Shown here: positions 1 through 15,076 of the stretch, in pieces
How positions within the stretch are numbered: the stretch's first letter is position 1
How the letters are laid out: each line of letters starts with the position of its first letter
IMG/VR virus record: IMGVR_UViG_2531839662_000027
Span: 1-15,076 of that record
DNA: 15,076 nucleotides
Source of the DNA: a virus
Taxonomy: Duplodnaviria > Heunggongvirae > Uroviricota > Caudoviricetes
Direction: 5' to 3' (one strand)
Position numbers and translations under genes: made by a program
Notes under the pieces: model-generated
What the model was told of the DNA's origin: nothing
Databases searched by the model: none
What the model saw: only the letters and a program-made list of their open reading frames with translations

Positions 1-952
1 TTATTCAGCCTTAGCAAAAGTGGTCATAGTTGTTCCACTGAAAGTGAATGACCTGTCTGTAAGAGTAACATCCTGAATAGCAAAGTAATCGCCAACACCA
101 GCGCCATTTACATAAAACTCGAATATCTCAGATGTATTTTCCGGAATAATATTATTAGCAATATAACACGTAGATAAAGAACCATTTGTTGATGGTAAAG
201 TTCCAAATAGCGTTGCATCCGATGCAGCATATATCGAACTGCTTAAATAAATATTTATATCAACATTACTCTCATAAGTAACAATTAAGTACACCCGGTC
301 GTTAACCTTCCACCCTCTGTCTTTTATCTTAGTATTAAGTGATAGCTTGTTAGAACTAGGGGTCGTTACGGTATTAATGGTTATTTTTGCTCCTATTGAG
401 TTGTATCTGCTTCTGGTTACTGTATTACCAGTATTGTTCATTGTATAAAGGATTGCTCTGCTTTCTGCAAACGTCCTCATATTAATCTTGCCTAAACAAT
501 CTCCTTCCATAACTTGTGGGCCAGACACAGTTGCACCAATATAACAATTAGTAAATACAGCATGAGCCCTGTTGTCAGTGCTTGATGCAAGTAATGAAAG
601 TTTAAAGTTGCCCTGATCTGCAATCCAGCAACTATCAACCTTAACTACAGCATCATTGTCAAGAACAACAAACCTTCCTCCCTCATTGTAATATCCTACA
701 AAAGCATTTACACCGCTTATTTTTACTACTCCATCTGGAACCGTAAAGATATCGCCTTGTATCGCTTCGCCATAGTACCCGCCAACAATATTGGTCACTC
801 GGGTATTTAAGTACATGCCATGCCCAATGCCGAACTCAAGGTCACATCCAATTAAGCTTAAACCTTCAATAGGGGAAGTACCAGAAGCATAAAAGGCATA
901 TTCACCGACCTTATTTGATGCAAATCCACAGTTATTGAACGTTACGCGGTTG
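1..952 (-). pseudogene. Tailspike gene (P22 gp9-type), C-terminal portion downstream of the IS1 insertion; stop codon at 1-3
   Basis: ORF 1..966 (-) continues in frame from the 1719-2769 fragment once IS1 and one copy of the target duplication are removed; the residues encoded from 966 down to 953 come from the IS1 end. Repetitive Gly/Asn/Val-rich beta-strand-like composition is consistent with a beta-helix receptor-binding domain. Confidence 0.7.
945..952. repeat. Left copy of the 8-bp IS1 target-site duplication (CGCGGTTG)
   Basis: Identical octamer directly flanks both IS1 ends (945-952 and 1719-1726). Confidence 0.7.
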
Positions 953-966
953 GGTAGTGCATCCAA

Positions 967-1362
967 TTAGTAGAACATGTGTTTTTCGATAAACGCTCCG
1001 ATCACTTTTTCGTGGATCTCAACTGAGCGTGAGAAGCAGATTGTTTTACGAGCCAACCGCTTAATGCGGGTGCGTAGCGTCAGATTATTACGCTCAATGC
1101 GTTGGGTGAATATTTTGCCGGTCAGATGCTTATTCTTCGGCACCTCCCGGCCATAGCTGCCCCAGTCATCGCTGGTCAGCATGCCGATGTTGAAGGGTGT
1201 AAGCAGTGCCAGTAGCTCCCGGCACGTTTGATCGGTTCGGGGACCAAAAGTGTAGGCCAGTACACCGCCTGTTTTGGTGTTGTACGCGTACCAGAGCCAG
1301 TGTTGCCGGGCTTTACTGCCAACGTAGCTCCATTGCTCATCAAGCTCGCAGATAAGCGCCAC
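967..1362 (-). CDS. insB: IS1 InsB reading frame (normally expressed as InsAB' transposase by -1 frameshift from insA)
   Basis: Translation aligns by eye with IS1 InsB (motifs ELDEQW.YVG, YTQRIER.NL.LR, SFSKSVE.H.KVIG); lies directly downstream of insA in the -1 frame. Confidence 0.8.
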   Translation of the reverse strand: MALICELDEQWSYVGSKARQHWLWYAYNTKTGGVLAYTFGPRTDQTCRELLALLTPFNIGMLTSDDWGSYGREVPKNKHLTGKIFTQRIERNNLTLRTRIKRLARKTICFSRSVEIHEKVIGAFIEKHMFY

Positions 1363-1388
1363 ATCAGCATGGGCAACAGGCGAAGACG

Positions 1389-1661
1389 TTATTCGCTTTG
1401 GCGCGAGTTTTTTAAAGTCCGGATGACGGTGTTAATACCAATTTTCAGTGTCCTGGCGGTATCGCGAACCCCGGCACCATTAAAGGCCATTTCAGTTATC
1501 AGCTCTTTCATACCCGGCTTACGTGCTTGATAAGTATAAGTGAGCTGAAACACACGGTGGCAGTCACGGCAGCGAAATCTGTCACGGCCTTTAGGGTTCT
1601 GACCATGGCGGTAAACCTGAGCTGACTGACAACGGGGACAATGAATATTAACGCTGGCCAT
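1389..1661 (-). CDS. insA: IS1 InsA (zinc-finger transposition regulator)
   Basis: 90-aa protein with a CPxC...CxxC zinc-finger N-terminus and helix-turn-helix C-terminus, colinear with IS1 InsA (MASV.I.CP.C...); divergent from classical IS1. Confidence 0.85.
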   Translation of the reverse strand: MASVNIHCPRCQSAQVYRHGQNPKGRDRFRCRDCHRVFQLTYTYQARKPGMKELITEMAFNGAGVRDTARTLKIGINTVIRTLKNSRQSE

Positions 1662-1718
1662 GAGATAACCTCAAAAGCCCGTATTATACATCAGATTCAA
1701 CTAATTAGAGGCATCACC

Positions 1719-1726
1719 CGCGGTTG
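1719..1726. repeat. Right copy of the 8-bp IS1 target-site duplication (CGCGGTTG)
   Basis: Identical to 945-952. Confidence 0.7.
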
Positions 1727-2769
1727 TTAGCCCCAGCAAGGTGAACTCCGCGATTTGGCGCAGGAACAAAAGAACAGCAATCATAGGTATTAAGCCAGTC
1801 GTTTATAGTATAGAAGTTCGCCACCACGCCATTGATGAAACGACAATTATGGGTTCTTCCTAGGTGAACATATTGAATTCGGCAAGCATAGTTGGCGATG
1901 TTGTTCCCATCAACTGTAACGTGAGAGATAGATGTGCTACGTCTTATAGAGTCAGTTTCGTAGTACATGTTGACAACTGTCTCTCCAGTGAACCCACTCC
2001 CCGCAATAATGAATGACTTCTCAACGCCATCCCCGAATAGGTCAACAGTGCCTATTGTTAAATCAACTGGTGACTTAACATAGTAAGTTCCTGCAGGGAC
2101 AAACAGCCTCTTTCCTGCCGATAAAGCAACTGCTGCAGCAGCATTAAAGCTAGCTGAGTTATCTGCCGCTGGATCACCAGTAATGGGGAAAAATTGAGCA
2201 ACAGAAATATAATCTGCTACCGTCACTTCGTACCATGGCAAAGCAGGAGATGACGGAAGAGTGCCACTACCACCGGTGTAGATTTTATTATTATACCACC
2301 ACCAGTTATCAACATTAGATAACACCCCCTCCTGCCACACCCCCCCTAACGAGAAATCAAGACCGTAAGAAGTAGCTATCTGACTTAATGATAATGTTGC
2401 TCCTCTGTCAGAAGCTAATTCTTGCCTTAATTGGTCAGGGTCATACTTCAGCACATTAGGAAAATAGAACTGCTGTGCACCATACGCATCATAAACAGCC
2501 ATAGAATGGCCTTGCACAGTTACGAACTTGGCAATCTGTCCGTTATATACCGGATATCCAGCAGCGTTAATGATGATTGGTTGCGAAACAGGAACGTGAG
2601 AGCCGTCTTCGTTCTCCACATAAACCTGAATCTGGTTTTCAGGATTTACAGGGTCAGTGTCAATTTTACCGATATAAATTTTGCCATTGGCTACGGCTTT
2701 AAAAGAACGAGCCATAGTGAAGAGTTGCGAAGGCATGCTTACCACAACATTTGCGGTGATATCTGACAT
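1719..2769 (-). pseudogene. Tailspike gene (P22 gp9-type), N-terminal portion upstream of the IS1 insertion
   Basis: From ATG at 2769-2767 the protein starts [13 protein letters not shown]...[37 protein letters not shown]...[13 protein letters not shown]...NVLKYDPDQ, matching the P22 tailspike head-binding domain as I recall it ([13 protein letters not shown]...). The frame is cut one codon into the IS1 end. The track ORF starts 16 codons earlier at 2817; 2769 is preferred by homology. Confidence 0.8.
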
Positions 2770-2794
2770 TTCATTGCTCCAGACGAATGATATG

Positions 2795-2817
2795 ATGCAA
2801 CCATGATGTGGTTGCAT
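2795..2817. promoter_or_regulatory. Perfect 9-bp inverted repeat (ATGCAACCA-N5-TGGTTGCAT) in the mnt/tailspike divergent intergenic region; candidate repressor operator
   Basis: Arms 2795-2803 and 2809-2817 are exact reverse complements; sits between the divergent start codons of tailspike (2769) and mnt (2891); no T-run on either side, so a terminator is unlikely. Confidence 0.4.
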
Positions 2818-2890
2818 ACCGAAATGGTACTATTGAGTATTTATCCAGTGGGTTACGATGCCATTCCACCCAACTGGTGAGGCATCAAGG

Positions 2891-3151
2891 ATGTACAGCA
2901 AATACGACGATGCGCAGTTTCACTTGAGACTTCCGCATGAACTCCACGCGAAAATTAAACAGCGTGCGAAGATGAATAACAGGTCACTGAACTCAGAGAT
3001 AATTGCAGCGATTGAAGAATCATTGGCTAAACAAAGCTCTGCATCAGTTTACATTGACGATGCAGAGCGTATGGCAGAACAACAATCTGATATGGTTAAG
3101 AAAATTGTCTTTGATACGCTCAAAGAGATATATAAAAAAGACAGCAACTAA
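2891..3151 (+). CDS. mnt: Mnt-like ribbon-helix-helix repressor (Arc/MetJ family)
   Basis: Protein MYSKYDDAQFHLRLPHELHAKIKQRAKMNNRSLNSEIIAAIEESL...DDAERMAEQQSDMVKKIVFDTLKEIYKK resembles P22 Mnt as recalled (..NDAERLADEQSELVKKMVFDTLKDLYKK); P22-like synteny next to the tailspike. Start at 2891 preferred over the track start at 2858 by alignment and a GAGG 9 nt upstream. Confidence 0.7.
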   Translation: MYSKYDDAQFHLRLPHELHAKIKQRAKMNNRSLNSEIIAAIEESLAKQSSASVYIDDAERMAEQQSDMVKKIVFDTLKEIYKKDSN

Positions 3152-3168
3152 CCATCCGTGGCTTTCCG

Positions 3169-5014
3169 TTACTTCTGGTTATCATCACTGTTCATCCAGT
3201 ACATGATGCCTAGCCTTGATATGGTTTTCTTATCTGATTCTGGAAGTGAGTTGTAAAACGAGCGCCAAGCAGAAGAGCGTCTTACAGTTGTATCAACGAT
3301 GCTTTCTGGTGCTTGTTTTACTGCCAGCCTTGCTGCTTTCTGGAATTCTGGTGAGCTAATTAGCTTTTCTGCAGATTCAATTGATTCAGCGCCGCCCATC
3401 GCCCTGATTTTGCTGGCGACTTTTGCCCCAATTTCTGACCCAGCAACAGCACCTACTGCACTGAACGGTCCTGACACAGTTGAACCAACCGCAGTGCCAA
3501 TGCGTTGGGCATGGTTAGCAACAAATTCATTTGCCGCAGTGACGCGATTAAACCGTTTTACGAACTCGTTTAGTCTTCCTGTAGTTATCTCGTAAGATTT
3601 TGCGTCTTTGATAGCCTTTGCGACCTTATATACATCGTTCAGACCTGACATAGTCTCTTTTGGTAAATGTCGGGCAAGATTGCGCATCTGCCCGTTTGCT
3701 AACATGTTTTGATACCAGTCAGCAAACCCTGCAGGATTAAAATCAGCGCCACGTTTTCCGTTCGAAAGCATATCCCGAAGACCTGTTCCCAGTAGCTCGG
3801 TTCTTAGCTTCCTGGACGGCGTGTTTTGCATCAATTCACGAAATCCTTTGGCATCGCCTTTCGACATTGCCTGTAGTGCTGTAGTTGCTTTGCGAGAAAC
3901 ATCACCGTTCAGCGTTCTGCCAGTTAGATTAATCATTTGCTCTTCCATGCTTTTTCGCATCTGAACAAGCCTCTGAGCAACTTCAAAATCACGTAATGCA
4001 TTTGTCTCTGACAGCGCCGCCTTTTGATCATCGGCGAGCGAACCGTAAAGCCTCGATAAAGCAGCGCGATCAGCATCTTTATATGGTCCAGAATTCTTAT
4101 GAAGTGCATCACCAACAAGTCGTCGTTGCTTATTGAGATTTGCATAAGTTAATGCGCCGTTCTTGCCTGGATTAACTGCCCGAAAGACTCTCTTTTCAAT
4201 AGGGTCAAGGTTTTTCATCCCGCCAAGATCTTCTGCCACCTGTTTGAGCATTGACCTTGTTGATGGCGCATCAATTTTTGCACCTGCAGGCATCGCCTTT
4301 TCAACATTGCGATAAAGCTGGTCGCTTCGTTTCATCAGCGCAGACATTCTTCCATTGACCGTATCAATAAACTTGTCGCTCATACCAAGAGCATCTTTTG
4401 CACCGGAAACGCGATCAATTATCTCCCCCGCGCCCTGTGCTAGCTGCCTGATTGCTTCATTTTCCTGCACCTGTAGAGCAGAACCCGCACGGGACTTGAT
4501 TGCTTGCTCAACTGCCTTGTATTGCTCGTTCCCGGAAAAGTGTGAAGGGAGTAATGAATCAACATTAAGCCTTTCAGCAGACTCCAGAACTTCAGCCTGA
4601 GGATTGATATCTAGTTCATCAAGCGATGAAGCGAGATTTGGCCTTTTTTGTGCTGCTACTGTGCGAACGACTTCCTCTGGGTTCCTCGTCGCAGGCGTCA
4701 TTGGTACACCTTGTGCTACTCTTGCCTCTGCGGCATGAACCGCAGGATTTGTTGCTGCAGCGGCATCACCGGAGAATGGTGATGTTTCTGTTGGCGCCGT
4801 GGTCGCTCTCTGTGCAGATGTTTTATTGCCACTAATTATATTTGATGCACCACGAACACCACGGGTAACGCCATTTATCAGGCCATGCGTAGCAATGTTA
4901 AGTCCGGCATTAATAGCGGCATTTTCGGCAAAATCACCCCGTTGATTCGCCGCGTCAGCGAGAGAACCAATGACCATGTTTCCAGCTACACCTGCTCCAG
5001 GAACAAGATAACCG
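3169..5014 (-). pseudogene. Ejection (injection) protein, P22 gp16-like: portion downstream of the IS629 insertion
   Basis: 602-codon frame joins in frame to the 6325-6713 fragment when IS629 plus one CCG copy is removed, giving about 743 codons; last gene of the gp7-gp20-gp16-like series before mnt/tailspike. Confidence 0.55.
5012..5014. repeat. Left copy of the 3-bp IS629 target-site duplication (CCG)
   Basis: CCG immediately flanks both IS ends (5012-5014, 6325-6327); a 3-bp duplication is typical of the IS3 family. Confidence 0.55.
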
Positions 5015-5068
5015 TGAACCGCCCCGGAAATCCTGGAGACTAAACTCCCTGAGAAAGAGGTAAACAGG

Positions 5069-5395
5069 ATGACTAAAAATACTCGTTTTTCCCCCGAAGT
5101 CCGTCAGCGGGCGATTCGTATGGTTCTGGAAAGTCAGGATGAATATGACTCACAGTGGGCGGCAATTTGTTCCATTGCCCCAAAGATTGGCTGTACGCCG
5201 GAGACTCTGCGTGTCTGGGTTCGCCAGCATGAGCGGGATACCGGGGGCGGTGATGGTGGGCTCACCAGCGCTGAACGTCAGCGTCTGAAAGAGCTGGAAC
5301 GTGAAAATCGTGAACTGCGCCGCAGTAACGATATCCTTCGCCAGGCTTCCGCTTATTTTGCGAAGGCGGAGTTCGACCGCCTCTGGAAAAAATGA
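5069..5395 (+). CDS. IS629 OrfA (helix-turn-helix, leucine-zipper transposase N-terminal part)
   Basis: 108-aa ORF, IS3-family OrfA architecture; sequence recognised as IS629 OrfA. Confidence 0.9.
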
Positions 5396-6282
5396 TGCCA
5401 CTGCTGGATAAGCTGCGTGAGCAGTACGGGGTCGGACCGGTATGTAGCGAACTGCATATTGCCCCGTCAACGTATTACCATTGTCAGCAACAGCGACATC
5501 ATCCGGATAAACGCAGTGCCCGTGCGCAGCACGATGACTGGCTGAAGAAAGAGATACAGCGCGTATACGATGAAAATCACCAGGTATACGGTGTGCGTAA
5601 AGTCTGGCGTCAGTTGTTACGGGAAGGTATCAGAGTGGCCAGATGCACTGTGGCACGTCTCATGGCAGTTATGGGACTTGCCGGTGTTCTCCGGGGTAAA
5701 AAGGTCCGCACTACCGTCAGCCGGAAAGCCGTTGCCGCAGGCGACCGCGTAAACCGTCAGTTCGTGGCAGAACGACCTGACCAGCTGTGGGTGGCTGATT
5801 TTACTTACGTCAGCACATGGCAGGGCTTCGTCTATGTGGCGTTTATCATTGATGTGTTTGCCGGATACATCGTGGGGTGGCGGGTCTCATCGTCTATGGA
5901 AACGACATTCGTGCTGGATGCGCTGGAGCAGGCGTTGTGGGCCCGTCGTCCGTCTGGCACCATCCATCACAGCGATAAAGGCTCTCAGTATGTGTCACTG
6001 GCCTATACGGAGCGACTAAAAGAAGCCGGATTACTGGCATCAACAGGGAGTACAGGCGACTCGTATGACAACGCGATGGCTGAGAGCATCAATGGTCTTT
6101 ACAAAGCGGAGGTAATACACCGTAAGAGCTGGAAAAACCGTGCAGAAGTGGAACTGGCCACACTAACGTGGGTGGACTGGTATAACAATCGACGATTGCT
6201 GGGAAGGCTGGGCCATACTCCTCCGGCAGAAGCAGAAAAAGCTTATTATGCTTCCATCGGAAACGATGATCTGGCAGCCTGA
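5392..6282 (+). CDS. IS629 OrfB (DDE catalytic domain; expressed as OrfAB by -1 frameshift)
   Basis: 296-aa ORF overlapping orfA by ATGA; integrase-like DDE region (..[16 protein letters not shown]..). Confidence 0.9.
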
Positions 6283-6324
6283 GTTCACAGATAAAACACT
6301 CTCCAGGAAACCCGGGGCGGTTCA

Positions 6325-6327
6325 CCG
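6325..6327. repeat. Right copy of the 3-bp IS629 target-site duplication (CCG)
   Basis: See 5012-5014. Confidence 0.55.
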
Positions 6328-6713
6328 CCTATTGACTCTCCAGCTTGCGCGTAGGGGTCTGTCGGTCTGTCTACTGGACGATAAACATCATCCAATACTT
6401 TTGGCCCCCCAAGCCCCTGACTGATTGCATTAATCAGACTTGCGCCACCCTGCAATACGTCAAATGGTATGTTTACCAGACCACGACCAGCCTGTTCTGC
6501 AATTTGCCCTGCACTTTGACCACCAGTGAGCCAATCGCCAGCTTGTTGCATCAATGATGGTTCTTCCCGTGTTGGTGCATTATTGGCCTGATTAACTGTT
6601 TGTTGCTGAACAGCCTGACCAGCAAAATACTCATCAATGGCGGTGCCAATATCTTCGGTGCTCGTACCATCAGGGAAGGTAAATGTCTTACCGTTTGCAG
6701 TTACTTTCATCAT
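6325..6713 (-). pseudogene. Ejection protein gp16-like: N-terminal portion upstream of the IS629 insertion
   Basis: Start ATG at 6713-6711 overlaps the stop of the upstream gene (ATGA coupling); native coding runs to 6325, and the last 13 codons of the track ORF (6285-6323) are read from the IS629 end. Confidence 0.55.
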
Positions 6714-8116
6714 TCCACCGTAAATTGAATGCCTGATTTTGAGGTATATGATCCAACCTGATTCCTTGGTTCTCCTGAAGGTGTCGAATCTTGTGCTGGC
6801 GCTGCGTCAGTATTCATTGACATATACCGCTTAACGGCACTCCCCAATGATTCACCTTTTTTAACATCCAACCCCAATATCTGACCGCCATTACGCGATT
6901 GTCCTGGATTGCCATTCGCGCTCATCCACTCGGCTTTAAACTCATTAAACTGCGCGTTTCGTCGCTCAAGGTTTGCCATCGCATCAAGCCATCTTGCGAC
7001 CGTCTCAGGGTTATCCATGTCAGTTGGCGCACCCTGTCGAACGATCTCAACGTCTTTATCCGTTGCTGGGCCGGGAGGTAGGAATTTAAGAACCTGACTG
7101 TTAACAAGGGCATTTTGGCGAATGCGCAAATCACGCAATGTTGTATCGCTTCCGGTAAGTTTTGCGAACATGTTCTGTGCGTTACCGAACAAACCTGTCG
7201 TTGGTTTTTCTGCTCTGAACTGTTGAGCAAGCGCACTCATAGAATTGGCTGAGTTTGATGATGCTGTAGCATTGTTTACAGCCGTCTCGATGCCTTTTTC
7301 CATGTTTACTGACAGCTTAGGTGCTTCGCTAATCAACTGCTGAGCCTTTTCCTGCGCTTGCTGCATCTTAAACCCGAACTCTTGCTGATCCAGAGCCAAG
7401 CGTTGTGCTGCGATATTGTGCCCTGTCATTGCTGACTGATAGGAAAGGTTTTGCCCTCTCGCCTGAAGTGCCTCGCCAGCCTGATTGCTGCGGATTGTCT
7501 CTGCCAGCCTGCCTCGGTCAATCTCACGACCAGCCATCTTGTCCTGAACATTGAAGTAGTCAATCGGACCGAGAGCAGCCATCCCAAGGTGATCAACAAA
7601 CTCACCAAATCCTGAAGGATTCTGCTGATACATCTGAGCAACGCTGTTAGGGTCAACACCGACGCGAGTCAGTTCCTTGGCGTTGTTTTGCAGCCATGAT
7701 TGCATTGCTTCTGGAGACGATGACGCAAGGCGTGCGCCAGCCGCTAAGGTGCCGATAGAATTGCGCTGGTCTTCATCAATGAATCCCATGCCTTTACGAA
7801 CGGATTCAATCTGGTCTGGATATTGAGTAGCCAACTGACGCAAAGCACCGCGATCACCAGACGCATAAGCATTAGCGTACGCCTGCTGAAATTCTTTCTG
7901 CCGCTGAGCCTGCTTTTCCTGCTGAAACACCCCTGCAATGCCTGAAAGGCCTTGCAAAGCAGTAAGCCCAACATTGTTAGCGCCTGAACGCTCAATATCA
8001 TTGTTCTGCCTGATAAGCTGAAGCGTATTGCCGATGTCATTTACGCTCGGAGCGTTTGAGTTGACGCCGCCGATACCAGCTAACAATCCGCCATTTGATC
8101 CTTGCCAAGTAGCCAT
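6710..8116 (-). CDS. Ejection (injection) protein, P22 gp20-like, 468 aa
   Basis: Size nearly identical to P22 gp20 (471 aa as recalled), Gln/Ala-rich helical composition, position between the gp7-like and gp16-like genes, translationally coupled at both ends. Assigned by synteny and size, not by a verified alignment. Confidence 0.6.
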
Positions 8117-8125
8117 GATTACCCC

Positions 8126-8504
8126 TTAAAACAACGAGCCAAGCAATCCGATACCAGCACCAATGCCAGCGCCCCAAGGTGTTGATGTTCCCAAAAGGCT
8201 GGCAAGACCTGCACCGGCAATCGCACCAGACGTTCCGCCACTAATTGCTGTCTGAAGACTTGATGGTTTGTTGGCATTAGCAGCGGCAAGAGCTGCGCTT
8301 TGCTGTGCAATGCTGCTCATGTTGTTGGCGTACGTCTGCCCGGCGTTTGCCTGACCTTGCAGAGCACCAAGCCCAACGTTTGCCAGATTGTTGTAATTGC
8401 TCATCTGGTTTGATAACCAAGACTGACCGAGAGTCGGCGCGATCGTAGCCAGTTGATTGCTTGTGGCTGTCGAACCAAGTCCTCCCGTAACCGCGAGGCA
8501 TCGA
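8126..8504 (-). pseudogene. 3' fragment of a gp7-like ejection protein gene, 5'-truncated at the deletion junction
   Basis: The open frame runs into cro-derived DNA in a frame different from cro; the first 17 codons of track ORF 8126..8554 are cro DNA read out of frame, so no native start or RBS remains. C-terminus is Gly/Ala-rich and hydrophobic. Confidence 0.45.
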
Positions 8505-8582
8505 CTATACGCCGAGATCTTTAGCTGTCTTGGTTTGACCAAAGCGCATTGCATAATCTTTCAGAGTTATGCGTTGTTCCAT
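8505..8582 (-). pseudogene. cro: cro, truncated after codon 25 by a deletion junction
   Basis: Minus strand reads CATGTACTAAGGAGGTTGTATGGAACAACGCATAAC...AAAGATCTCGGCGTATAG: lambda cro RBS and first 25 codons (MEQRITLKDYAMRFGQTKTAKDLGV), then a stop where lambda has TAT CAA AGC; sequence 3' of 8505 is unrelated to cro. Confidence 0.8.
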
Positions 8583-8606
8583 ACAACCTCCTTAGTACAT
8601 GCAATT

Positions 8607-8676
8607 ATTATCACCGCTAGAGGTAAAATAGTCAACACGCACGGTGTTAGATATTTATCCCTTGCGGTGATAGATT
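8607..8676. promoter_or_regulatory. Lambda-type right operator: oR1 (8609-8625), oR2 (8633-8649), oR3 (8656-8672), with pR (minus strand) and pRM (plus strand)
   Basis: 17-bp operators TATCACCGCTAGAGGTA, CAACACGCACGGTGTTA and TATCCCTTGCGGTGATA match lambda oR1/oR2/oR3 with one change in oR1; pRM-like TAGATA (8648-8653) and TAGATT (8671-8676) precede a leaderless cI ATG at 8683; pR -35/-10 read on the minus strand at 8635-8630 and 8612-8607. Confidence 0.85.
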
Positions 8677-8679
8677 TAA

Positions 8680-9396
<717 letters not shown>

Positions 9397-9403
9397 CACG
9401 TAA

Positions 9404-9841
9404 ATGATTAAAGAACGTATTTCTTATATCATTCCGATTGCGATGGATGAAGGCAACCCCGTAACTCCAGTTCTTATCTATGAAATGGATAAAGACTCCC
9501 ATGAAGTGGATCTGTCATTTGGCGCTTTTTTTATCGGCCTTAAGGCTACAAAAAAATATTCCATAGGCATTGAGGTTTTCAATGCTCAAGAAATACCGAT
9601 ACCAATTGACACAAAACTGTACTCCAACCATAAGTTTTTTACGGTAGCAGAAGCCAACGATGGAGAAACCATCGTATCAACTTCTATGAGAATTAACTTC
9701 CCAAGGGTGAAAATTATCAAGCCTGGGATATTCGAAGTTAGAGCATCACTGGTTAATCCTGAGAAAGGCGAAGTAATTGATGTAAAAAGTTCGTTTTTTG
9801 ACGTGAAGATAACAGGATCAGTTCGCGATGAGTTTAGATAA
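9404..9841 (+). CDS. Hypothetical 145-aa protein in the rex position (first gene of the cI-linked module)
   Basis: ATG 7 nt after the cI stop, no terminator between; no transmembrane segment evident; AT-rich; no similarity to RexA that I can recognise. Confidence 0.6.
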   Translation: MIKERISYIIPIAMDEGNPVTPVLIYEMDKDSHEVDLSFGAFFIGLKATKKYSIGIEVFNAQEIPIPIDTKLYSNHKFFTVAEANDGETIVSTSMRINFPRVKIIKPGIFEVRASLVNPEKGEVIDVKSSFFDVKITGSVRDEFR

Positions 9842-10199
9842 CAAGGTTGCTCAGCTTCGTCCAAATCAAAACATATCTCGCCCAATTGGACACTATTCCA
9901 CTGATGATGCATACTCACGGCATGGTGGAGGAAACGGCGGAGGTAACATGCTTGAGGCTAGAGTTGCAAAGCTAGAGTCTGATGTTGAATACATCAAGCG
10001 CGATCTCGCTGAGGTAAAGTCAGATATAAAATCTGTTGATTCTCGTCTGTCAGGTATTGAGACAAGCATTAGCTCAGCAAAAACCACCATTAAGGCATCT
10101 GCGGTCGTTGTCAGTTTCGTGTTCGCATTTTGCGCCTACATTTTTGGAAGTTATGTTTCCAAAATCCTTGATGCCTTAAACGGACTCGTTCTTAAGTAA
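9828..10199 (+). CDS. Hypothetical small membrane protein (123 aa, or 80 aa from the internal start at 9958): Gly-rich linker, coiled coil, C-terminal hydrophobic segment
   Basis: Overlaps the previous ORF by 14 nt; heptad-like LEARVAKLESDVEYIKRDLAEVKSDIKSVDSRL; hydrophobic AVVVSFVFAFCAYIFGSYV; internal ATG at 9958 is preceded by GGAGGTAAC; a strong terminator follows. Confidence 0.6.
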   Translation: MSLDNKVAQLRPNQNISRPIGHYSTDDAYSRHGGGNGGGNMLEARVAKLESDVEYIKRDLAEVKSDIKSVDSRLSGIETSISSAKTTIKASAVVVSFVFAFCAYIFGSYVSKILDALNGLVLK

Positions 10200-10206
10200 C
10201 ACACAA

Positions 10207-10233
10207 CCCGGCCTCAGTGCCGGGTTTTCTTTG
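10207..10233 (+). terminator. Rho-independent terminator ending the cI operon (t-imm equivalent)
   Basis: Perfect 6-bp GC stem CCCGGC/GCCGGG with 6-nt loop followed by TTTTCTTTG, directly after the second rex-slot ORF. Confidence 0.7.
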
Positions 10234-10383
10234 CCTCTCGATCCCCCTTCCCAACAACACATAACCATTTGTATTTATTGGAAAACTAATAGATACAACT
10301 TGCTAAACAGTGCAATTCTGATCCCTCACCTACCTAACAATTCACCCCTGCAAAAAATAAATCCATATAAAAAACATACAGAT

Positions 10384-10446
10384 AACCATCTGCGGTGATA
10401 AATTATCTCTGGCGGTGTTGACACAAATACCACTAGCGGTGATACT
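10384..10446 (+). promoter_or_regulatory. Lambda-type left operator and pL: oL3 (10384-10400), oL2 (10404-10420), oL1 (10428-10444); pL -35 TTGACA (10418-10423), -10 GATACT (10441-10446)
   Basis: AACCATCTGCGGTGATA, TATCTCTGGCGGTGTTG and TACCACTAGCGGTGATA match lambda oL3/oL2/oL1 as recalled; 17-bp spacer between -35 and -10; oriented toward N. Confidence 0.85.
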
Positions 10447-10491
10447 AAACACATCAGCAGGAAGCTGGAAGCCAAACGGAACAGATTGGCA

Positions 10492-10526
10492 TGCTCTTTA
10501 ACTTCGATGGGGCGCTGACAAAGCGC
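10492..10526 (+). promoter_or_regulatory. nutL site: boxA (TGCTCTTTAAC, 10492-10502) and boxB hairpin (GCGCT-GACAA-AGCGC, 10512-10526), P22 type
   Basis: boxA-like motif followed 9 nt later by a 5-bp stem/5-nt loop hairpin whose sequence matches the P22 boxB as I recall it; located between pL and the N-like gene. Confidence 0.7.
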
Positions 10527-10645
10527 AAACAGATACCAAACGAGATGGGTTTGGCGGTGATGTGAATTGCAGCAGTAACGACAGCAACCAGAAGATCAGC
10601 ATCTGGCGCATCACCACCAAAGCTATTTCACATGAGGAAAACATC

Positions 10646-10954
10646 ATGACGGTAATCGTGTACGGAAAATCAACATTTGCAGGAAATGCCAAGACTCGCC
10701 GTCATGAGCGGCGCAGAAAGCTGGCCATCGAGCGTGATTCCATCTGCAACATCATCGATTCGATCTTCGGCGCAGACAGTGAGGAGCCTGTTCAGGAAGC
10801 CCCGAGAAAACGTTTAAGCCTTTCTGAAAAAGCAATATCACTCGGAATCCTTCGCTGCAAGAAGGCAGATGAATGCAGTGGAAGTATTTGCCTGCCAAAC
10901 GTAGCCATTTACGCGGCAGGCTACCGGAAATCAAAACAACTGACGGCGAGGTAA
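10646..10954 (+). CDS. N: N-family transcription antiterminator, P22 gene 24 type
   Basis: Arginine-rich motif GNAKTRRHERRRKLAIERD near the N-terminus matches the P22 N RNA-binding peptide as recalled; ATG at 10646 preceded by GAGGA; first gene after pL/nutL. The track ORF from 10562 is an upstream in-frame extension, judged not used. Confidence 0.8.
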   Translation: MTVIVYGKSTFAGNAKTRRHERRRKLAIERDSICNIIDSIFGADSEEPVQEAPRKRLSLSEKAISLGILRCKKADECSGSICLPNVAIYAAGYRKSKQLTAR

Positions 10955-11182
10955 GTGATGAATCAGACATACATTCCATCATGCTTGAGAAATCTGCCAA
11001 AGCAGAAAGCAAAGCCCCGCAAGCAAGCCATAAAGGACGCTAAGGCAGAGGTTATTGATCAAGCAATACAATTGCTCAGGGAGGAGTTAAGAAGTGGCAA
11101 GCTCGAAGGAATGATGATGCCCTATCAGCGCGGATATCTATCGGCGATTAGTAAGTTGGAAGTACTGAAGAGTGAATTATGA
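10955..11182 (+). CDS. Hypothetical 75-aa basic/helical protein
   Basis: ORF starting GTG-ATG immediately after the N stop (coupled); no recognisable motif. Confidence 0.45.
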   Translation: MMNQTYIPSCLRNLPKQKAKPRKQAIKDAKAEVIDQAIQLLREELRSGKLEGMMMPYQRGYLSAISKLEVLKSEL

Positions 11183-11244
11183 ACTATCTGGAATTTCCGG
11201 ATGGTTCATTGTTTTGGCAGCAAACCACTTATTTGAGGTGATAT

Positions 11245-11331
11245 ATGGAAGAAGAATTTGAAGAGTTCGAAGAGCATCCTCAGGATGTGATGGAACAATA
11301 CCAGGACTATCCTTATGACTACGACTATTGA
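11245..11331 (+). CDS. Possible micro-ORF encoding a 28-aa highly acidic, aromatic peptide (MEEEFEEFEEHPQDVMEQYQDYPYDYDY)
   Basis: ATG preceded by GAGGTGATAT; the 3' end overlaps the ral start by 17 nt; below the ORF-track length cutoff. Confidence 0.3.
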   Translation: MEEEFEEFEEHPQDVMEQYQDYPYDYDY

Positions 11332-11515
11332 TAAAAATCAATGGTGTGGACAATTCAAGCGATGCAATGGATGCAAGCTGCAATCGGAATGCATGGTTAA
11401 ACCTGAAGAAATGTTTCCTGTAATGGAGGATGGGAAATATGTCGATAAATGGGCAATACGAACGACGGCAATGATTGCCAGAGAACTTGGTAAACAGAAT
11501 AACAAGGCTGCCTGA
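11315..11515 (+). CDS. ral: Ral, restriction alleviation protein (66 aa)
   Basis: Translation MTTTIDKNQWCGQFKRCNGCKLQSECMVKPEEMFPVMEDGKYVDKW... matches lambda Ral as I recall it; expected position in the pL operon downstream of N. Confidence 0.8.
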   Translation: MTTTIDKNQWCGQFKRCNGCKLQSECMVKPEEMFPVMEDGKYVDKWAIRTTAMIARELGKQNNKAA

Positions 11516-11574
11516 TGGTGGCCTTTGTTTTTTGGCCGTAAATAATTTCATGCTTATTACAATCAAGGGGATAT

Positions 11575-11820
11575 ATGGAAGAACAAGCAAACAAGATTCT
11601 CGTAGAACTACTGCAAAAAGCCAGTAATGGAATAGACGCGGCTGTTTCATTTAGCCAGGCACAGATTCCTGATGTCATCCATCAGCTTTTGATGTGGCAC
11701 GCCGTATCATCAGCTGGAATTCAGGCTACATGGTCAGACGAAGAATTCATTCGTCAGATGAACAAAATGCTCAATCAGCACAAAGAACAGGAGAAAGATG
11801 ATGATTCTGACTCTGAATGA
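11575..11820 (+). CDS. Hypothetical 81-aa protein with a strongly acidic C-terminal tail (EQEKDDDSDSE)
   Basis: ATG preceded by AAGGGGATAT; overlaps the next ORF. Confidence 0.5.
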   Translation: MEEQANKILVELLQKASNGIDAAVSFSQAQIPDVIHQLLMWHAVSSAGIQATWSDEEFIRQMNKMLNQHKEQEKDDDSDSE

Positions 11821-12109
11821 TAAGCGTGAAATATCGCAAATAATCGCAAGTTTTACTGATGAAGATTACGAGCGAATCAACAGTGAAGTTGATCGTCTCT
11901 GCAAACGTTGCGACCCAATAAGCGAAATGCTTCGCTCATATAAACCAGATGAACACACTAAGGACGCTATCGACTGGCTGGAAGATGATGACTGTAACTA
12001 TCAGGAAAAAGCCGCTGAATGGTTCTGGGATGCAATAACCGAAAGAGTTAAGGCTGAATATGCCTTCGCAATATTCAAACGCAGACACATTTATGGAGAA
12101 GCAGCATGA
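11798..12109 (+). CDS. Hypothetical 103-aa acidic protein
   Basis: ATG preceded by GGAGAAAG; ATGA-coupled to recT downstream. Confidence 0.5.
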   Translation: MMILTLNDKREISQIIASFTDEDYERINSEVDRLCKRCDPISEMLRSYKPDEHTKDAIDWLEDDDCNYQEKAAEWFWDAITERVKAEYAFAIFKRRHIYGEAA

Positions 12110-13017
12110 GCAATATCGTTGAATTCGTTAAACAGCAGGAGCAGTTATTCTGCGGAGCATTGACTGAACAGACGGTGACATGGGCTAAGGAAAGCCAGTT
12201 TGCAATTCAGTATTTCCAGAAAAATGATTACCTGGCTAAAACGGCACTGGCAAATCCAACCAGCGCACAGAACGCCATCATCAATGTTGCGGCGATCGGC
12301 ATCACCTTAAACCCGGCTAGCAAACTGGCTTATCTGGTTCCGCGCGACGGCATGGTGTGCCTTGATATCAGTTATATGGGATTGCTCCATATTGCAATGG
12401 AGTCTGGTGTTATCTCATGGGGTCAGGCAAAACTTGTTCATGCTAACGATACCTATGAGTCAAACGGGCTTGATAAAGCACCAACCCATAAATACAACGC
12501 CTTCGGTGATCGTGGTGATATCGTTGGCGTTTACTGCACAGTTAAGACGCCAGCAGGTGATTATCTAACGGAAGAGATGAGTCTGGCTGAAATTGAGGCT
12601 GTAAGGAAAACAAGCAAGGCGGCATTCAGCGATAAAGGACCATGGGTAAATCACTGGAATGAGATGGCGCGAAAGACGGTCGTAAAGCGTGCAAGCAAGT
12701 ATTGGCCTAAGGCATCACGTCTTGATAGTGCTATTCACGTACTAAACGAAGAAGAAGGTGTGTGGACTGAACCAGTTATGCCGCACAAATCAGAGGAAGA
12801 TATCCGCGAAGATGAACGGAAACGCCAGCAGGAAATAACGGATAAAGCACAACTTCTTTGTGATGAAATGGATCAGGCAGAAAACATGGATGATTTGAAG
12901 CGATATTTTGCAGAAGCATATCGCCTGACATCTGGAATGAAATTGCAGCAGAACGTACAAGCCATTTACATAGAATGCAAAGCGAAACTGGAGGTTGCCA
13001 GTGAGCAAACTGTATGA
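12106..13017 (+). CDS. recT: RecT-family single-strand annealing protein
   Basis: Conserved block GPWVNHWNEMARKTVVKRASKYWP resembles the RecT signature (GPWVTHWEEMAKKTAIRRLFKYLP in Rac RecT as recalled); size and position typical of a phage recombination module. Confidence 0.8.
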   Translation: MSNIVEFVKQQEQLFCGALTEQTVTWAKESQFAIQYFQKNDYLAKTALANPTSAQNAIINVAAIGITLNPASKLAYLVPRDGMVCLDISYMGLLHIAMESGVISWGQAKLVHANDTYESNGLDKAPTHKYNAFGDRGDIVGVYCTVKTPAGDYLTEEMSLAEIEAVRKTSKAAFSDKGPWVNHWNEMARKTVVKRASKYWPKASRLDSAIHVLNEEEGVWTEPVMPHKSEEDIREDERKRQQEITDKAQLLCDEMDQAENMDDLKRYFAEAYRLTSGMKLQQNVQAIYIECKAKLEVASEQTV

Positions 13018-13483
13018 AATTGCCAATGAATACGCAAAATTGATGGATTCAGATTTAGAACCAGAGATGATTGCTGACACAATAGAAGGCATGGAAGGAG
13101 AATTTACCGATAAAATAGAGCAACTTCTTTCCGTCATTAAAAATGAATCTGGTTATGCTGAACGCCTCAAGGAAGAGGCAAAGTCACTGAATGAGCGAGC
13201 CGCAGTAATTCAAAATAAGATTGACAGCATCAAATCATATATAGCGTCATCGCTTGAAATGGTTGGCAAGAAAAATATTCGAGCAGGTATTCACCAGGTA
13301 ACAATCCGCAAACCGTCAGAAATTGTAGAAATCATCGACTCAAGCGCCCTTCCTCCTGAATACGTTGAGTTCGAAACGACAATTAAAGCCGACAAACTGG
13401 CAATCAAACACCAACTAAAAGCAGGAATAAATATCCCCGGTGCTCAACTCAAAGTTGGGAAACCTTCACTTCTTATCAAATAA
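13001..13483 (+). CDS. Sipho_Gp157-like protein (recombination-associated partner of RecT)
   Basis: Pattern LYEI..EY..L...LEPE...DT.EG.EGEF..K.E.........Y.....EEAK.L.ER...IQ.KI...K.Y.....E.VGKK.I......V.IRK.....VEIID...LP.EYV.......KADK.AIK..LKAG..IPGA matches the Gp157 family as I know it. GTG at 13001 with GGAGG 6 nt upstream preferred over the track TTG start at 12995. Confidence 0.65.
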   Translation: MSKLYEIANEYAKLMDSDLEPEMIADTIEGMEGEFTDKIEQLLSVIKNESGYAERLKEEAKSLNERAAVIQNKIDSIKSYIASSLEMVGKKNIRAGIHQVTIRKPSEIVEIIDSSALPPEYVEFETTIKADKLAIKHQLKAGINIPGAQLKVGKPSLLIK

Positions 13484-13494
13484 CGGTATCGCCT

Positions 13495-13809
13495 ATGAAA
13501 AAGACTCCATGGGAGAAATGGGAAGTCGATTTCTTGCGCGAAGTAGCGGCGACAATGCCAGTTGAAGTTATTGCTGAAAAACTGGAAAGGACTGAAAAAG
13601 CAGTAATGGCGAAAGCAACAAGGATTGGCGCTGACATTGTTAGCCGACTTCGTGGAAGACGATGGACAAGAGCCGAAGTATCACTTTTCGGTAAGTTCTC
13701 CGCAGAAGAAATAGCAATTGCAACCTGCCGCTCAATTTATTCAGTAAGGGCTATGCGATACAAGCTAAAAAAACTCGATGAAGAAAGAGCAGGCATACGA
13801 ATAAATTAA
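13495..13809 (+). CDS. Hypothetical 104-aa protein with two internally repeated helix-rich halves
   Basis: Halves [39 protein letters not shown] and [39 protein letters not shown] share a W-x2-EV-x-F ... A/S-V-x-A-x-x-R spacing. Confidence 0.5.
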
Positions 13810-13825
13810 CAAAGAGGAATTTACC

Positions 13826-13993
13826 ATGAGAGGACTTGCATACAATCCCGGCATTCTTCCGGCAGAAATGATTATTCGCCAACGCGTAAAGCCAATGCCA
13901 TCGAGAGAGGAATTGCTAAAGAGAAAGAGTTTCGGTTCTGTTAATGACAACAAATATCTGAATGCGATGTGGCGTAAAGGAGGCAAGCAGTGA
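13826..13993 (+). CDS. Possible small ORF (55 aa, basic)
   Basis: ATG preceded by AAAGAGGAA at good spacing; below the ORF-track cutoff. Confidence 0.3.
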
Positions 13994-14295
13994 GTAATTC
14001 CGCACGACTACAGCTTGGTTTTTCACCGCTATCAAAAACTATCATGCTGGCAAAAATGCGCGATGTTGAAGGTGGACGTATGCGCGTTGGCAATGATCCA
14101 GGTCGTGATGCACGAAGAAAAGACAATAACAATCCTCGCACTCGCGGGGATTTCTTTTATCTGAACTCGCTACGGCGGGTTTTGTTTTATGTAGATGATA
14201 AATGCACTTCAGAGTCACAGGTGAATGGAATGGAGAGCCATTCAACAGAGTTATCGAAGCAGAGAACATCAACGACTGCTATGACCACTGGATAA
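13990..14295 (+). CDS. Doubtful ORF (GTG start, 101 aa, low-complexity Arg/Asp/Asn-rich)
   Basis: Open frame only; competing antisense ORFs; composition not protein-like in places. Confidence 0.2.
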
Positions 14296-14357
14296 TATGG
14301 GCGCAGATAGCACATGCAGACATAACCAATATTCGAATTGAAGAACTGAAAGAACAC

Positions 14358-14383
14358 CAAGCCGCCTGATGGCGGTTTTTTTA
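14358..14383 (+). terminator. Rho-independent terminator
   Basis: AAGCCGCC-TGAT-GGCGG stem-loop followed by TTTTTTT (14376-14382). Confidence 0.65.
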
Positions 14384-14396
14384 TTGGAGACAAGAA

Positions 14397-14741
14397 ATGT
14401 CAGATTTGGCTATGAAGGTTTTGAAATGGCAATCGACTGGCGATGTTGGCATCAGTAGCGCAACTCTTGCCTCAATCGCATGTGGACTGAAAAAGAATAT
14501 CTATGGTCATAGCTTCGGTGCTCCACATGACGCAGCCGATTTCCGACGATGCGTTGCGCTTGTCGAGCAGATTCCAGAAATCAGAGATTCATTCGACAAG
14601 GTTGCAAAGCGCGTTCCGGCATTCAAAGGCATCCTCAACGAATGGGATTCTCTCGTTGCTCTGTTGAAGTCTGAAATGAAGATACACGGAAACAAAGCGC
14701 CAGAGACTTACAGAAGAATCAGCGAGCTACGCAAGGACTAA
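14397..14741 (+). CDS. Hypothetical 114-aa protein
   Basis: ORF beginning 14 nt after the terminator T-run; no recognisable motif. Confidence 0.5.
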   Translation: MSDLAMKVLKWQSTGDVGISSATLASIACGLKKNIYGHSFGAPHDAADFRRCVALVEQIPEIRDSFDKVAKRVPAFKGILNEWDSLVALLKSEMKIHGNKAPETYRRISELRKD

Positions 14742-14743
14742 CT

Positions 14744-14839
14744 ATGGAATCACACGGCCTCACACTCGATGAGGCCTGTCAGTTTCTCAAGATATCCAGA
14801 CCTACCATCGCCGCATCAATGCGGTTTTTTATTACCTGA
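14744..14839 (+). other. 31-codon ORF whose first 24 codons look like the helix-turn-helix start of an excisionase/AlpA-type protein, ending in a terminator hairpin; possible gene remnant
   Basis: MESHGLTLDEACQFLKISRPTIAA resembles the N-terminus of AlpA/Xis-type proteins and the core of the ORF at 14876; the remaining codons run into a hairpin plus T-run. Confidence 0.3.
14811..14833 (+). terminator. Rho-independent terminator-like hairpin
   Basis: CCGCA-TCAA-TGCGG followed by TTTTTTATT. Confidence 0.5.
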
Positions 14840-14875
14840 TTTGCAGGTTCGATTCCCTATTCGGAGATAGCACTC

Positions 14876-15076
14876 ATGCAACACGAACTACAGCCTGATT
14901 CCCTGGTTGATTTGAAATTCATCATGGCTGATACTGGCTTTGGTAAAACCTTCATCTACGACCGGATTAAGTCCGGCGACCTGCCAAAAGCCAAAGTTAT
15001 CCACGGACGAGCAAGATGGTTATATCGTGACCATTGTGAATTCAAAAATAAGCTCTTAAGCCGCGCCAATGGGTAA
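14876..15076 (+). CDS. Excisionase/AlpA-family small DNA-binding protein (putative Xis), 66 aa
   Basis: Core L.FIMADTGFGKTFIYDRIKSGDLPKAKVIHGRARWLYRD..EF fits the AlpA/Xis winged-helix pattern; position at the distal end of the pL operon, where int would follow beyond the window. Confidence 0.55.
   Translation: MQHELQPDSLVDLKFIMADTGFGKTFIYDRIKSGDLPKAKVIHGRARWLYRDHCEFKNKLLSRANG

Follow-up and report, generated by a model that had tools for sequence, protein, structure and literature searches.

Our analysis of a 15,076-nt stretch of a Caudoviricetes virus record (IMG/VR record IMGVR_UViG_2531839662_000027, positions 1 to 15,076; this whole stretch is called the window below) showed that the 104-residue protein encoded at 13495-13809 (hereafter the target) contains a genuine internal repeat and is in all likelihood built of two tandem Myb-like helix-turn-helix (HTH) units. 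It is probably a remote, collinear homologue of the Abc1 protein of phage P22 and has the same architecture, without being a close member of the same family. The best explanation that we can offer, with a probability of roughly 0.55, is that the target acts as a monomeric, two-part DNA binder, is expressed early along with the recombination genes and would have an accessory or host-takeover role. The original prediction, made from the letters of the sequence, had described a 104-residue reading frame containing two tandem repeats of a helix-rich unit; its coordinates and length are exact according to the open reading frame list and translation, and the two units were confirmed by a unit hidden Markov model (HMM), by hhalign of the two halves and by an AlphaFold2 model. 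The gene and its parts are as follows.

13495-13809, plus strand: target coding sequence, ATG at 13495 and TAA at 13807-13809, 104 residues (open reading frame list and translation)
13504-13629, plus strand: repeat 1, residues 4-45, Myb/SANT-like three-helix HTH with the near-invariant I26-A-E-K-L-E-R32 (unit HMM)
13630-13656, plus strand: inter-repeat linker, residues 46-54 (ADIVSRLRG), predicted coil, predicted local distance difference test (pLDDT) ~70-78
13657-13770, plus strand: repeat 2, residues 55-92 (unit HMM, hhalign against repeat 1, predicted helices)
13771-13806, plus strand: C-terminal tail, residues 93-104, low model confidence, the last block having a pLDDT of 52

The single-unit HMM was built from 841 tandem units of multi-repeat relatives and matches the target twice, each time through HMM positions 10-51. 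Its score is 45.0 bits (E 5e-16) for residues 4-45 and 31.4 bits (E 9e-12) for residues 55-92; the maxima among 2000 shuffles of each half were 12.1 bits for the first and 10.4 bits for the second. When each HMM was built from the units of a single protein, the register was unchanged, with weaker matches to repeat 2. When the halves were compared by hhalign, using a family alignment of 15 orthologues with 32-90% identity, repeat 1 aligned with repeat 2 over 36 columns with a four-residue gap (probability 91%, P 9.7e-7). The multi-repeat relatives behind the unit HMM had been retrieved with the family's own profile, and the independent support therefore consists of the common register and of copy-number variation. 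Relatives of 151-155 residues have a third copy inserted before the C-terminal tail (hhalign against repeat 2, E 4e-11), and in the alignment the third unit of the 152-residue relatives enters just ahead of this tail; the 107-residue relative P0187 consists of repeat 1 followed by a copy of the repeat-3 type. The number of repeats thus varies within the family.

The motifs on which the repeat had been proposed are present in both halves; the first of them, however, reads W-x3-EV (W6..E10V11 and W57..E61V62) and not W-x2-EV, and the spacing is not identical, the second half being shorter by four residues between helix 1 and helix 2. EV-IA (residues 24-27) and EE-IA (residues 71-74) lie where they had been placed, and A/S-V-x-A occupies residues 36-39 and 83-86. 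The self-alignment suggested as a check gave a misleading answer: in a plain BLOSUM62 local alignment the halves score 21, at chance level (shuffle mean 21.4; 2557 of 5000 shuffles equal or exceed the score), the outcome is the same with relaxed gap penalties, and a naive dot plot would have rejected the repeat. We dropped plain self-alignment as a test because the repeats have an indel and only ~25% identity. The repeat itself is genuine, and it is detectable by profile methods only. That the halves are instead unrelated helical segments or separately acquired HTH domains that look alike by chance would fit the chance-level pairwise score, but is barely credible in view of the scores above 30 bits for both halves on one unit model in the same register (shuffles at most 12 bits), the profile-profile P of 1e-6 between them, the family members with two or three copies, P0187 among them, and the tandem arrays of this unit in thousands of relatives.

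The AlphaFold2 model, calculated from an 11-sequence alignment, has a mean pLDDT of 82 and contains two three-helix bundles, with helices at residues 8-17, 23-30 and 34-43 in the first and 59-66, 70-77 and 81-98 in the second. The proposal of two HTH-like units is thereby upheld, each half being predicted as a three-helix HTH unit. Repeat 1 has an invariant charged patch, E28-K29-L30-E31-R32-x-E34, and in repeat 2 a conserved T77-x-R-S-I-x-S-V-R85 spans the turn and the third helix. The isoelectric point (pI) of the whole protein is 10.0, with a marked difference between its parts: the net charge of repeat 1 is ~0 (pI 6.2) and the repeat 2 region is strongly basic (net +9 for residues 51-93; pI 10.9 for residues 51-104), while the linker forms, together with R55 and R56, the basic stretch SRLRGRR. 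This charge asymmetry is seen in most orthologues, not in all.

The nature of the unit emerged from its multi-copy relatives. A search of 1.84 billion representative proteins with the family-alignment profile gave 3282 matches at E <= 1e-3, many of them in 4-10 separate stretches of the protein. Many of the matched phage and bacterial proteins are tandem arrays of 3-17 copies of one ~47-residue unit, such as P0053 (a helicase followed by nine copies), P0075 (six copies) and P0067 (~17 copies). P0053 matches the Pfam families Myb_DNA-binding (2e-41, seven stretches), Myb_DNA-bind_6 (1e-39) and Sigma70_r4_2 (2e-27), and among 94 single units scanned (alignment A4) there were 13 matches to Myb_DNA-binding, 11 to Sigma70_r4_2 and 8 to GcrA. 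Compared with PDB sequences, the unit profile found Cbp2 (2LVS, 2e-7), c-Myb R1R2R3 (7e-5), RcsB (3e-4), the GcrA DNA-binding domain (4e-4) and the DnaJC1 SANT domain (4e-4). The likeness to small two-repeat DNA-binding proteins that had been suggested is therefore present at the level of the unit, whose profile matches Cbp2, c-Myb R2R3 and the GcrA domain. The family profile gave marginal PDB matches only, to the NarL C-terminal HTH (E 0.002-0.012; RcsB also appeared), with which repeat 1 aligns at E 0.0023, and to 2LVS (E 0.14); its neuraminidase matches in the same database are spurious. Foldseek found no PDB match to the full model at E <= 0.001 (best E 0.09-0.8), a search probably limited by the undefined orientation of the domains; the best of these PDB matches are all two-part HTH DNA binders, among them Cbp2, the paired domain of Pax6 and the Tc3/Mos1 transposases. 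In BFVD it found 17 matches at E <= 1e-3, mostly uncharacterised phage proteins of ~100 residues, and some BFVD neighbours carry a fused endonuclease or an annotation as GcrA-, Myb- or AsnC-like. The identification of the unit as a Myb/SANT/GcrA-like three-helix HTH of ~45 residues is supported. The target alone has no Pfam or NCBIfam match above threshold; it does not match PF00249 even at E <= 10 and the multi-copy relatives do, so that its membership of the Myb/SANT group (PF00249/PF13921) is by transitive homology only. A literature search on Myb/SANT proteins of prokaryotes or phages gave nothing of relevance.

The repeats of c-Myb R2R3 and of SANT domains (PF00249) are, like those of the target, three-helical and ~50 residues long, and share with it the signature W-T-x-E-E-x-x-L...I-A-x-x-L-x-R-(T/S)...V-x-x-R. 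Unlike c-Myb, the target has a shortened loop between helices 1 and 2 in repeat 2 and has kept one of the three Trp: the three-Trp Myb core is absent, only the first Trp being conserved (W6, W57), with Ile at the second position (I26, I73) and a non-aromatic residue at the third. Tandem Myb repeats such as c-Myb R2R3 bind DNA as a monomer. A second useful comparison is with Cbp2, an archaeal protein of 105 residues and known structure in which a basic linker separates two imperfect HTH repeats and which binds CRISPR repeat DNA, and with its three-repeat relative Cbp1 (PMC3597662). Cbp2 has the size (~105 residues), the two HTH repeats and the basic linker of the target, both families include two- and three-repeat versions, and Cbp2 is not only the best PDB match of the unit profile but also second in the Foldseek PDB ranking (E 0.15). 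It differs in being archaeal and chromosomal, in binding CRISPR repeats and in matching the family profile at just E 0.14. Cbp2 is the closest solved architectural analogue or a very remote relative, not a family member. The N-terminal DNA-binding domain of GcrA (PF07750; 5YIU) closely resembles the unit consensus WT..E...L....G.s..eIA..LgR...aV..ka.kLGL (unit profile 3.7e-4), but GcrA has a single unit and a C-terminal sigma-70-binding domain, whereas the target has two units and lacks that domain; it is not an alphaproteobacterial cell-cycle regulator of the GcrA type.

Other assignments were considered and rejected. Relatives of the target score just under the Sigma70_r4_2 cut-off, and NCBI names Abc1 homologues 'sigma-70 family RNA polymerase sigma factor', but a protein of only 104 residues that lacks region 2 and has no Sigma70_r4 or NCBIfam match is not a sigma factor. 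For a LuxR/GerE-type HTH the marginal NarL signal (E 0.0023-0.012) is the sole trace; the target has no GerE match, it differs from LuxR/NarL proteins in having no receiver or ligand-binding domain, and the hits are below curated thresholds. The fusion of some structural neighbours to HNH or Vsr nucleases might suggest a homing-endonuclease remnant; this was dismissed, the gene being intact, under purifying selection and always free-standing here.

The relationship to P22 Abc1 (anti-RecBCD protein 1, gp35) was likewise visible to profiles. Abc1 matches PHROG 323 at 1.3e-23 and the target matches the same PHROG at 2.8e-20; hhalign of the target family against Abc1 gave a probability of 89% (E 2e-6) over 77 columns, pairing target residues 15-93 with Abc1 residues 12-93, and the unit HMM recognises the C-terminal unit of Abc1 (E 2.8e-12). 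For an Abc1 homologue with 97% identity, the AlphaFold2 model (helices at 8-14, 20-26 and 31-40, then 54-65, 70-77 and 81-93) has the same 3+3 helix topology as the target model, with near-identical helix boundaries, and 27 of the top 50 BFVD neighbours are common to the two models, including all top 11 of the target. The proteins also differ. Abc1 has 94 residues against 104, and its N-terminal unit has neither the unit HMM match nor the W-x3-E motif, both of which are found in the target. Both genes occupy the same early-left (PL) operon slot, between the recombination genes and the orf56/DUF2737 gene; the order in P22 is erf-abc1-abc2-orf56 and that in the window recT-gp157-target-orf56 homologue, so that abc1 follows erf and is paired with abc2, whereas the target follows RecT and a Gp157/Mu Gam-like gene and has no abc2 beside it. 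The erf and arf genes are absent from the window, and an annotated or recognisable abc2 was seen in none of the orthologue loci examined.

What has been reported for Abc1 gives little direct guidance. The sequence of the abc genes dates from 1987 (Murphy et al. 1987, as cited in PMC12315714). Abc1 helps P22 recombination without being essential, and no molecular function has been assigned to it (PMC12315714, PMC9836394); full P22 recombination activity is reported to require it, binding to RecBCD being untested (PMC9836394). It has a predicted HTH, and its expression alone triggers cell death via the P4 satellite prophage, for which interference with P4 transcriptional regulation was suggested (bioRxiv 10.1101/2023.04.06.535777). 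A broad phage-sensitising phenotype was described as well, with no clear host partner in affinity purification-mass spectrometry (AP-MS) (PMC12373910). The mechanism of Abc1 is itself unexplained, and the homology hence carries little functional information to the target.

The target is a real gene under strong purifying selection: comparison with the orthologue of Salmonella phage SEN22 gives a dS (synonymous divergence) of 0.92, a dN (nonsynonymous divergence) of 0.058 and a dN/dS of 0.063. Its matches to phrog_11492 (4.6e-23, residues 4-93) and phrog_323 (2.8e-20) assign it to PHROG 11492, a phage family inside the broader PHROG 323. Phages Gally, mEpX1 and Louie encode a protein of 100% identity, and the gene is also found in HK140, Kapi1 and others; a tblastn search among isolated phages returned 16 records, each at least 91% identical. 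Among 5426 complete E. coli genomes, 299 (~5.5%) have the gene, annotated in all of them as 'hypothetical protein'. A scan of genome contigs with the 11-sequence alignment profile gave six loci, and the best 80 loci of a viral-contig scan are 99-100% identical alleles, all in the RecT-Gp157 context, that added no diversity. Names already in use diverge: RefSeq calls the protein 'transcriptional regulator, D5-like' (through PHROG 323), and the identical gene of phage Gally is annotated 'Anti-RecBCD protein 1, similar to P22gp35_Abc1'.

The gene had been placed immediately after the recombination genes, and this location not only holds in the window but is conserved behind five non-homologous types of recombination module. 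The features of the window around the target are listed here.

8683-9396, plus strand: cI-like repressor
to 10954, plus strand: N-like antiterminator
11315-11515, plus strand: ral
11798-12109, plus strand: phrog_3486 gene (PHROG 3486, 1.7e-59), left border of the recombination cassette
12106-13017, plus strand: RecT-family single-strand annealing protein (Pfam RecT 2.7e-32, PHROG 148 4e-92), first gene of the module
12995-13483, plus strand: Sipho_Gp157/Mu Gam-like gene (PF05565 2.4e-37, PHROG 253 5e-54), last gene of the module
13826-13993, plus strand: DUF2737 gene (Pfam DUF2737 1.7e-29), 73% identical to P22 orf56
from 14876, plus strand: xis-like gene

The stop codon of the Gp157/Mu Gam-like gene lies 11 nt ahead of the target ATG; the phage Gally annotation uses a shorter Gp157 start, corresponding to window position 13043. 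Upstream of orthologues in other genomes and contigs, the following modules were found.

L091, L092, L094, L096, L100: RecT and Gp157
L099: RecT, Dam and Gp157, followed by two tandem target-family paralogues
L095: Bet and YqaJ exonuclease
L003, L101: lambda Gam, phrog_21613 and YqaJ
L004-L010, SEN22: exonuclease VIII and phrog_11517
L098: Sak4-like AAA_24 and a 104-residue protein

In all of the ~16 contexts examined, covering five module types, the orthologue stands directly behind the last recombination gene. Comparison with SEN22 DNA (11731-13974 of the window) locates the borders of the exchange: identity is 97% up to 12109, there is no similarity across 12110-13494, where the window has RecT and Gp157 and SEN22 has exonuclease VIII and phrog_11517, and similarity returns exactly at the target ATG, with 80% identity over 13495-13974. 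The recombination genes therefore behave as a swappable cassette between phrog_3486 and the block of target and DUF2737 gene, the latter two appearing, from this pattern of DNA identity, to be co-inherited as one mosaic block. The phrog_3486 family is also found upstream of the exonuclease VIII module in L004.

Several observations on the neighbourhood of these orthologues deserve mention. Behind relatives that have a third-type repeat and an ERNGWD tail, a DNA methyltransferase gene (Dam-like, N6/N4 or C5) follows immediately 3' in L003, L091, L092, L094, L095 and L101, often with overlapping stop and start codons; this is a small sample of six loci. The next gene after two-repeat versions is DUF2737 or phrog_614 instead. 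The two paralogues in L099 (3702-4279), behind RecT-Dam-Gp157, have 99 and 92 residues. Within the modules themselves, phrog_11517 (~190 residues) follows the exonuclease VIII-like gene (L004 4432-5001, L009 4414-4998, L007 513-1112), and phrog_21613 (167 residues) lies between lambda-type Gam and the YqaJ exonuclease (L003 3881-4384, L101 2881-3384); both occupy the slot expected for an annealing protein and may be unrecognised annealing or SSB proteins. The 3.4-kb contig L093, labelled as a Parachlamydiaceae metagenome-assembled genome, carries a 152-residue orthologue of the enterobacterial type and a C5 methyltransferase, much like the Citrobacter loci, and is probably a binning contaminant.

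How might such a protein act? The target lies in the PL operon behind the recombination genes and is presumably co-transcribed with them. We envisage that a single molecule would bind duplex DNA, its two third helices contacting neighbouring major grooves. Affinity would come mainly from the basic linker and the strongly basic repeat 2, in the manner of c-Myb R2R3 and archaeal Cbp2, and the near-neutral repeat 1, with its invariant IAEKLER patch, may add specificity or touch a partner protein. The outcome would be an accessory or host-takeover function alongside any type of recombination module, as reported for Abc1, and not tied to one recombinase. Binding to DNA is, of the parts of this proposal, a reasonably probable one; a direct role in recombination is more doubtful. 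Since orthologues stand behind five unrelated module types and without abc2, any recombination role cannot depend on a specific recombinase or on Abc2.

A number of results weigh against this interpretation. The predicted template modelling score (pTM 0.46) is too low for the model to define how the two units are oriented to each other, and no solved structure is significant by fold or by family profile (best Foldseek E 0.09; NarL 0.002-0.01). The best Pfam score of the target, to HTH_12, is 20.7 bits with a cut-off of 21.4. Repeat 1, with its neutral to slightly acidic character and many conserved Glu, is in type closer to protein-binding SANT than to DNA-binding Myb domains. As to the link with Abc1, BLASTP found no alignment between the target and the P22 protein, and tblastn of P22 Abc2 against the window found no match, abc2 being absent from it. 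Conservation of position in lambdoid genomes can mirror a common genome architecture and not a common function. We also include here the AP-MS result for Abc1, which speaks neither for nor against a protein target.

The point about genome architecture leads to the strongest of the alternatives, that the target is a transcription factor acting on host, prophage or satellite promoters, with no role in recombination and with a position that reflects nothing other than lambdoid gene order. Such a factor would agree with the HTH-based architecture, with the RefSeq label acquired via PHROG 323, with the P4-dependent cell death caused by P22 Abc1 alone (bioRxiv 10.1101/2023.04.06.535777) and with the mosaic breakpoint exactly at the target start codon, so that the gene travels with DUF2737 rather than with the recombination genes. 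We nevertheless think it rather unlikely, as a recombination module precedes the gene in all contexts examined whatever the module type, P22 genetics tie abc1 to recombination efficiency (PMC9836394, PMC12315714) and no target promoter or operator is known.

SANT domains with a signature of this kind are often protein-binding, and the target could also be an adaptor whose SANT-like unit or units dock on RecBCD, SSB, RNA polymerase or a phage recombination protein. The near-zero charge and invariant charged patch of repeat 1, the conservation of the gene beside recombination genes, the requirement of Abc1 for full P22 recombination activity (PMC9836394) and the original naming of Abc1 as anti-RecBCD protein 1 are all in keeping with this. 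An adaptor is nonetheless unlikely, and somewhat more so than a transcription factor, considering that repeat 2 and the linker are strongly basic, that every one of the nearest sequence relatives of the unit with a solved structure binds DNA and that AP-MS of Abc1 gave no clear partner (PMC12373910); moreover, the five unrelated types of neighbouring module mean that the partner cannot be a specific recombinase.

A bolder version of the DNA-binding proposal, which we regard as a long shot, would make the family that includes Abc1 a general 'cap' of recombination modules, a two-part Myb/GcrA-like reader of some DNA feature that serves at least five unrelated recombinase systems. Candidates for this feature are a sequence, a DNA end or junction and, on the model of GcrA, N6-methyladenine; the last idea was raised because a methyltransferase gene follows the third-type-repeat variants wherever the downstream gene is readable (six loci).

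The window as a whole appears to be a defective P22-like/lambdoid prophage whose PL operon has kept its genes intact, the target among them. On the minus strand, a P22-like tailspike gene (1-2817) is divided into C-terminal (1-966) and N-terminal (1714-2817) portions by a ~750-bp insertion that has two small transposase reading frames, 967-1362 (phrog_720) and 1389-1661 (phrog_1191); the insertion looks like an IS1-type insertion sequence (IS) element, and a search with the default seed found no terminal inverted repeat for it. A gp16-like ejection/DNA-transfer gene (3169-6713) is likewise split, into C-terminal (3169-4977) and N-terminal (6285-6713) parts, by an IS3-family element (5014-6325) with 26-nt terminal inverted repeats that are 88% complementary and with orfA at 5069-5395 and orfB at 5392-6282. 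A fragment of a gp7-like ejection protein (region 8126-8700, covering only profile positions 109-232 of 240) abuts cI on the opposite strand, and the whole cro-replication-nin-lysis-head region has therefore apparently been deleted. It is this deletion and the two IS insertions that identify the prophage as defective. Between cI and N, in the slot of rexAB in lambda and of sieB in P22, lie two further genes.

9404-9841, plus strand: unknown gene, 145 residues, phrog_5893
9828-10199, plus strand: unknown gene, 123 residues, phrog_6136

One gene of this pair at 9404-10199 (phrog_6136) has a glycine-rich N-terminus, a coiled-coil-like middle and a hydrophobic C-terminus, and the two genes are candidates for prophage exclusion or defence genes.

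The mechanism of Abc1 has been unexplained since 1987, and current reviews still call the protein uncharacterised (PMC9836394, PMC12315714). The target is an ordinary member of a widespread phage family, and our result is incremental and does not describe a new kind of system. What it contributes is, firstly, a two-repeat Myb-like HTH architecture common to Abc1 and to a common prophage protein of E. coli and Salmonella and, secondly, the observation that the family keeps one slot behind five unrelated recombination modules, without abc2. A better annotation, as a tandem Myb/SANT-like HTH protein, Abc1-like, is supported. The function of these proteins is unlikely to hinge on Abc2 or on a particular recombinase, and a DNA-directed activity is the leading hypothesis.

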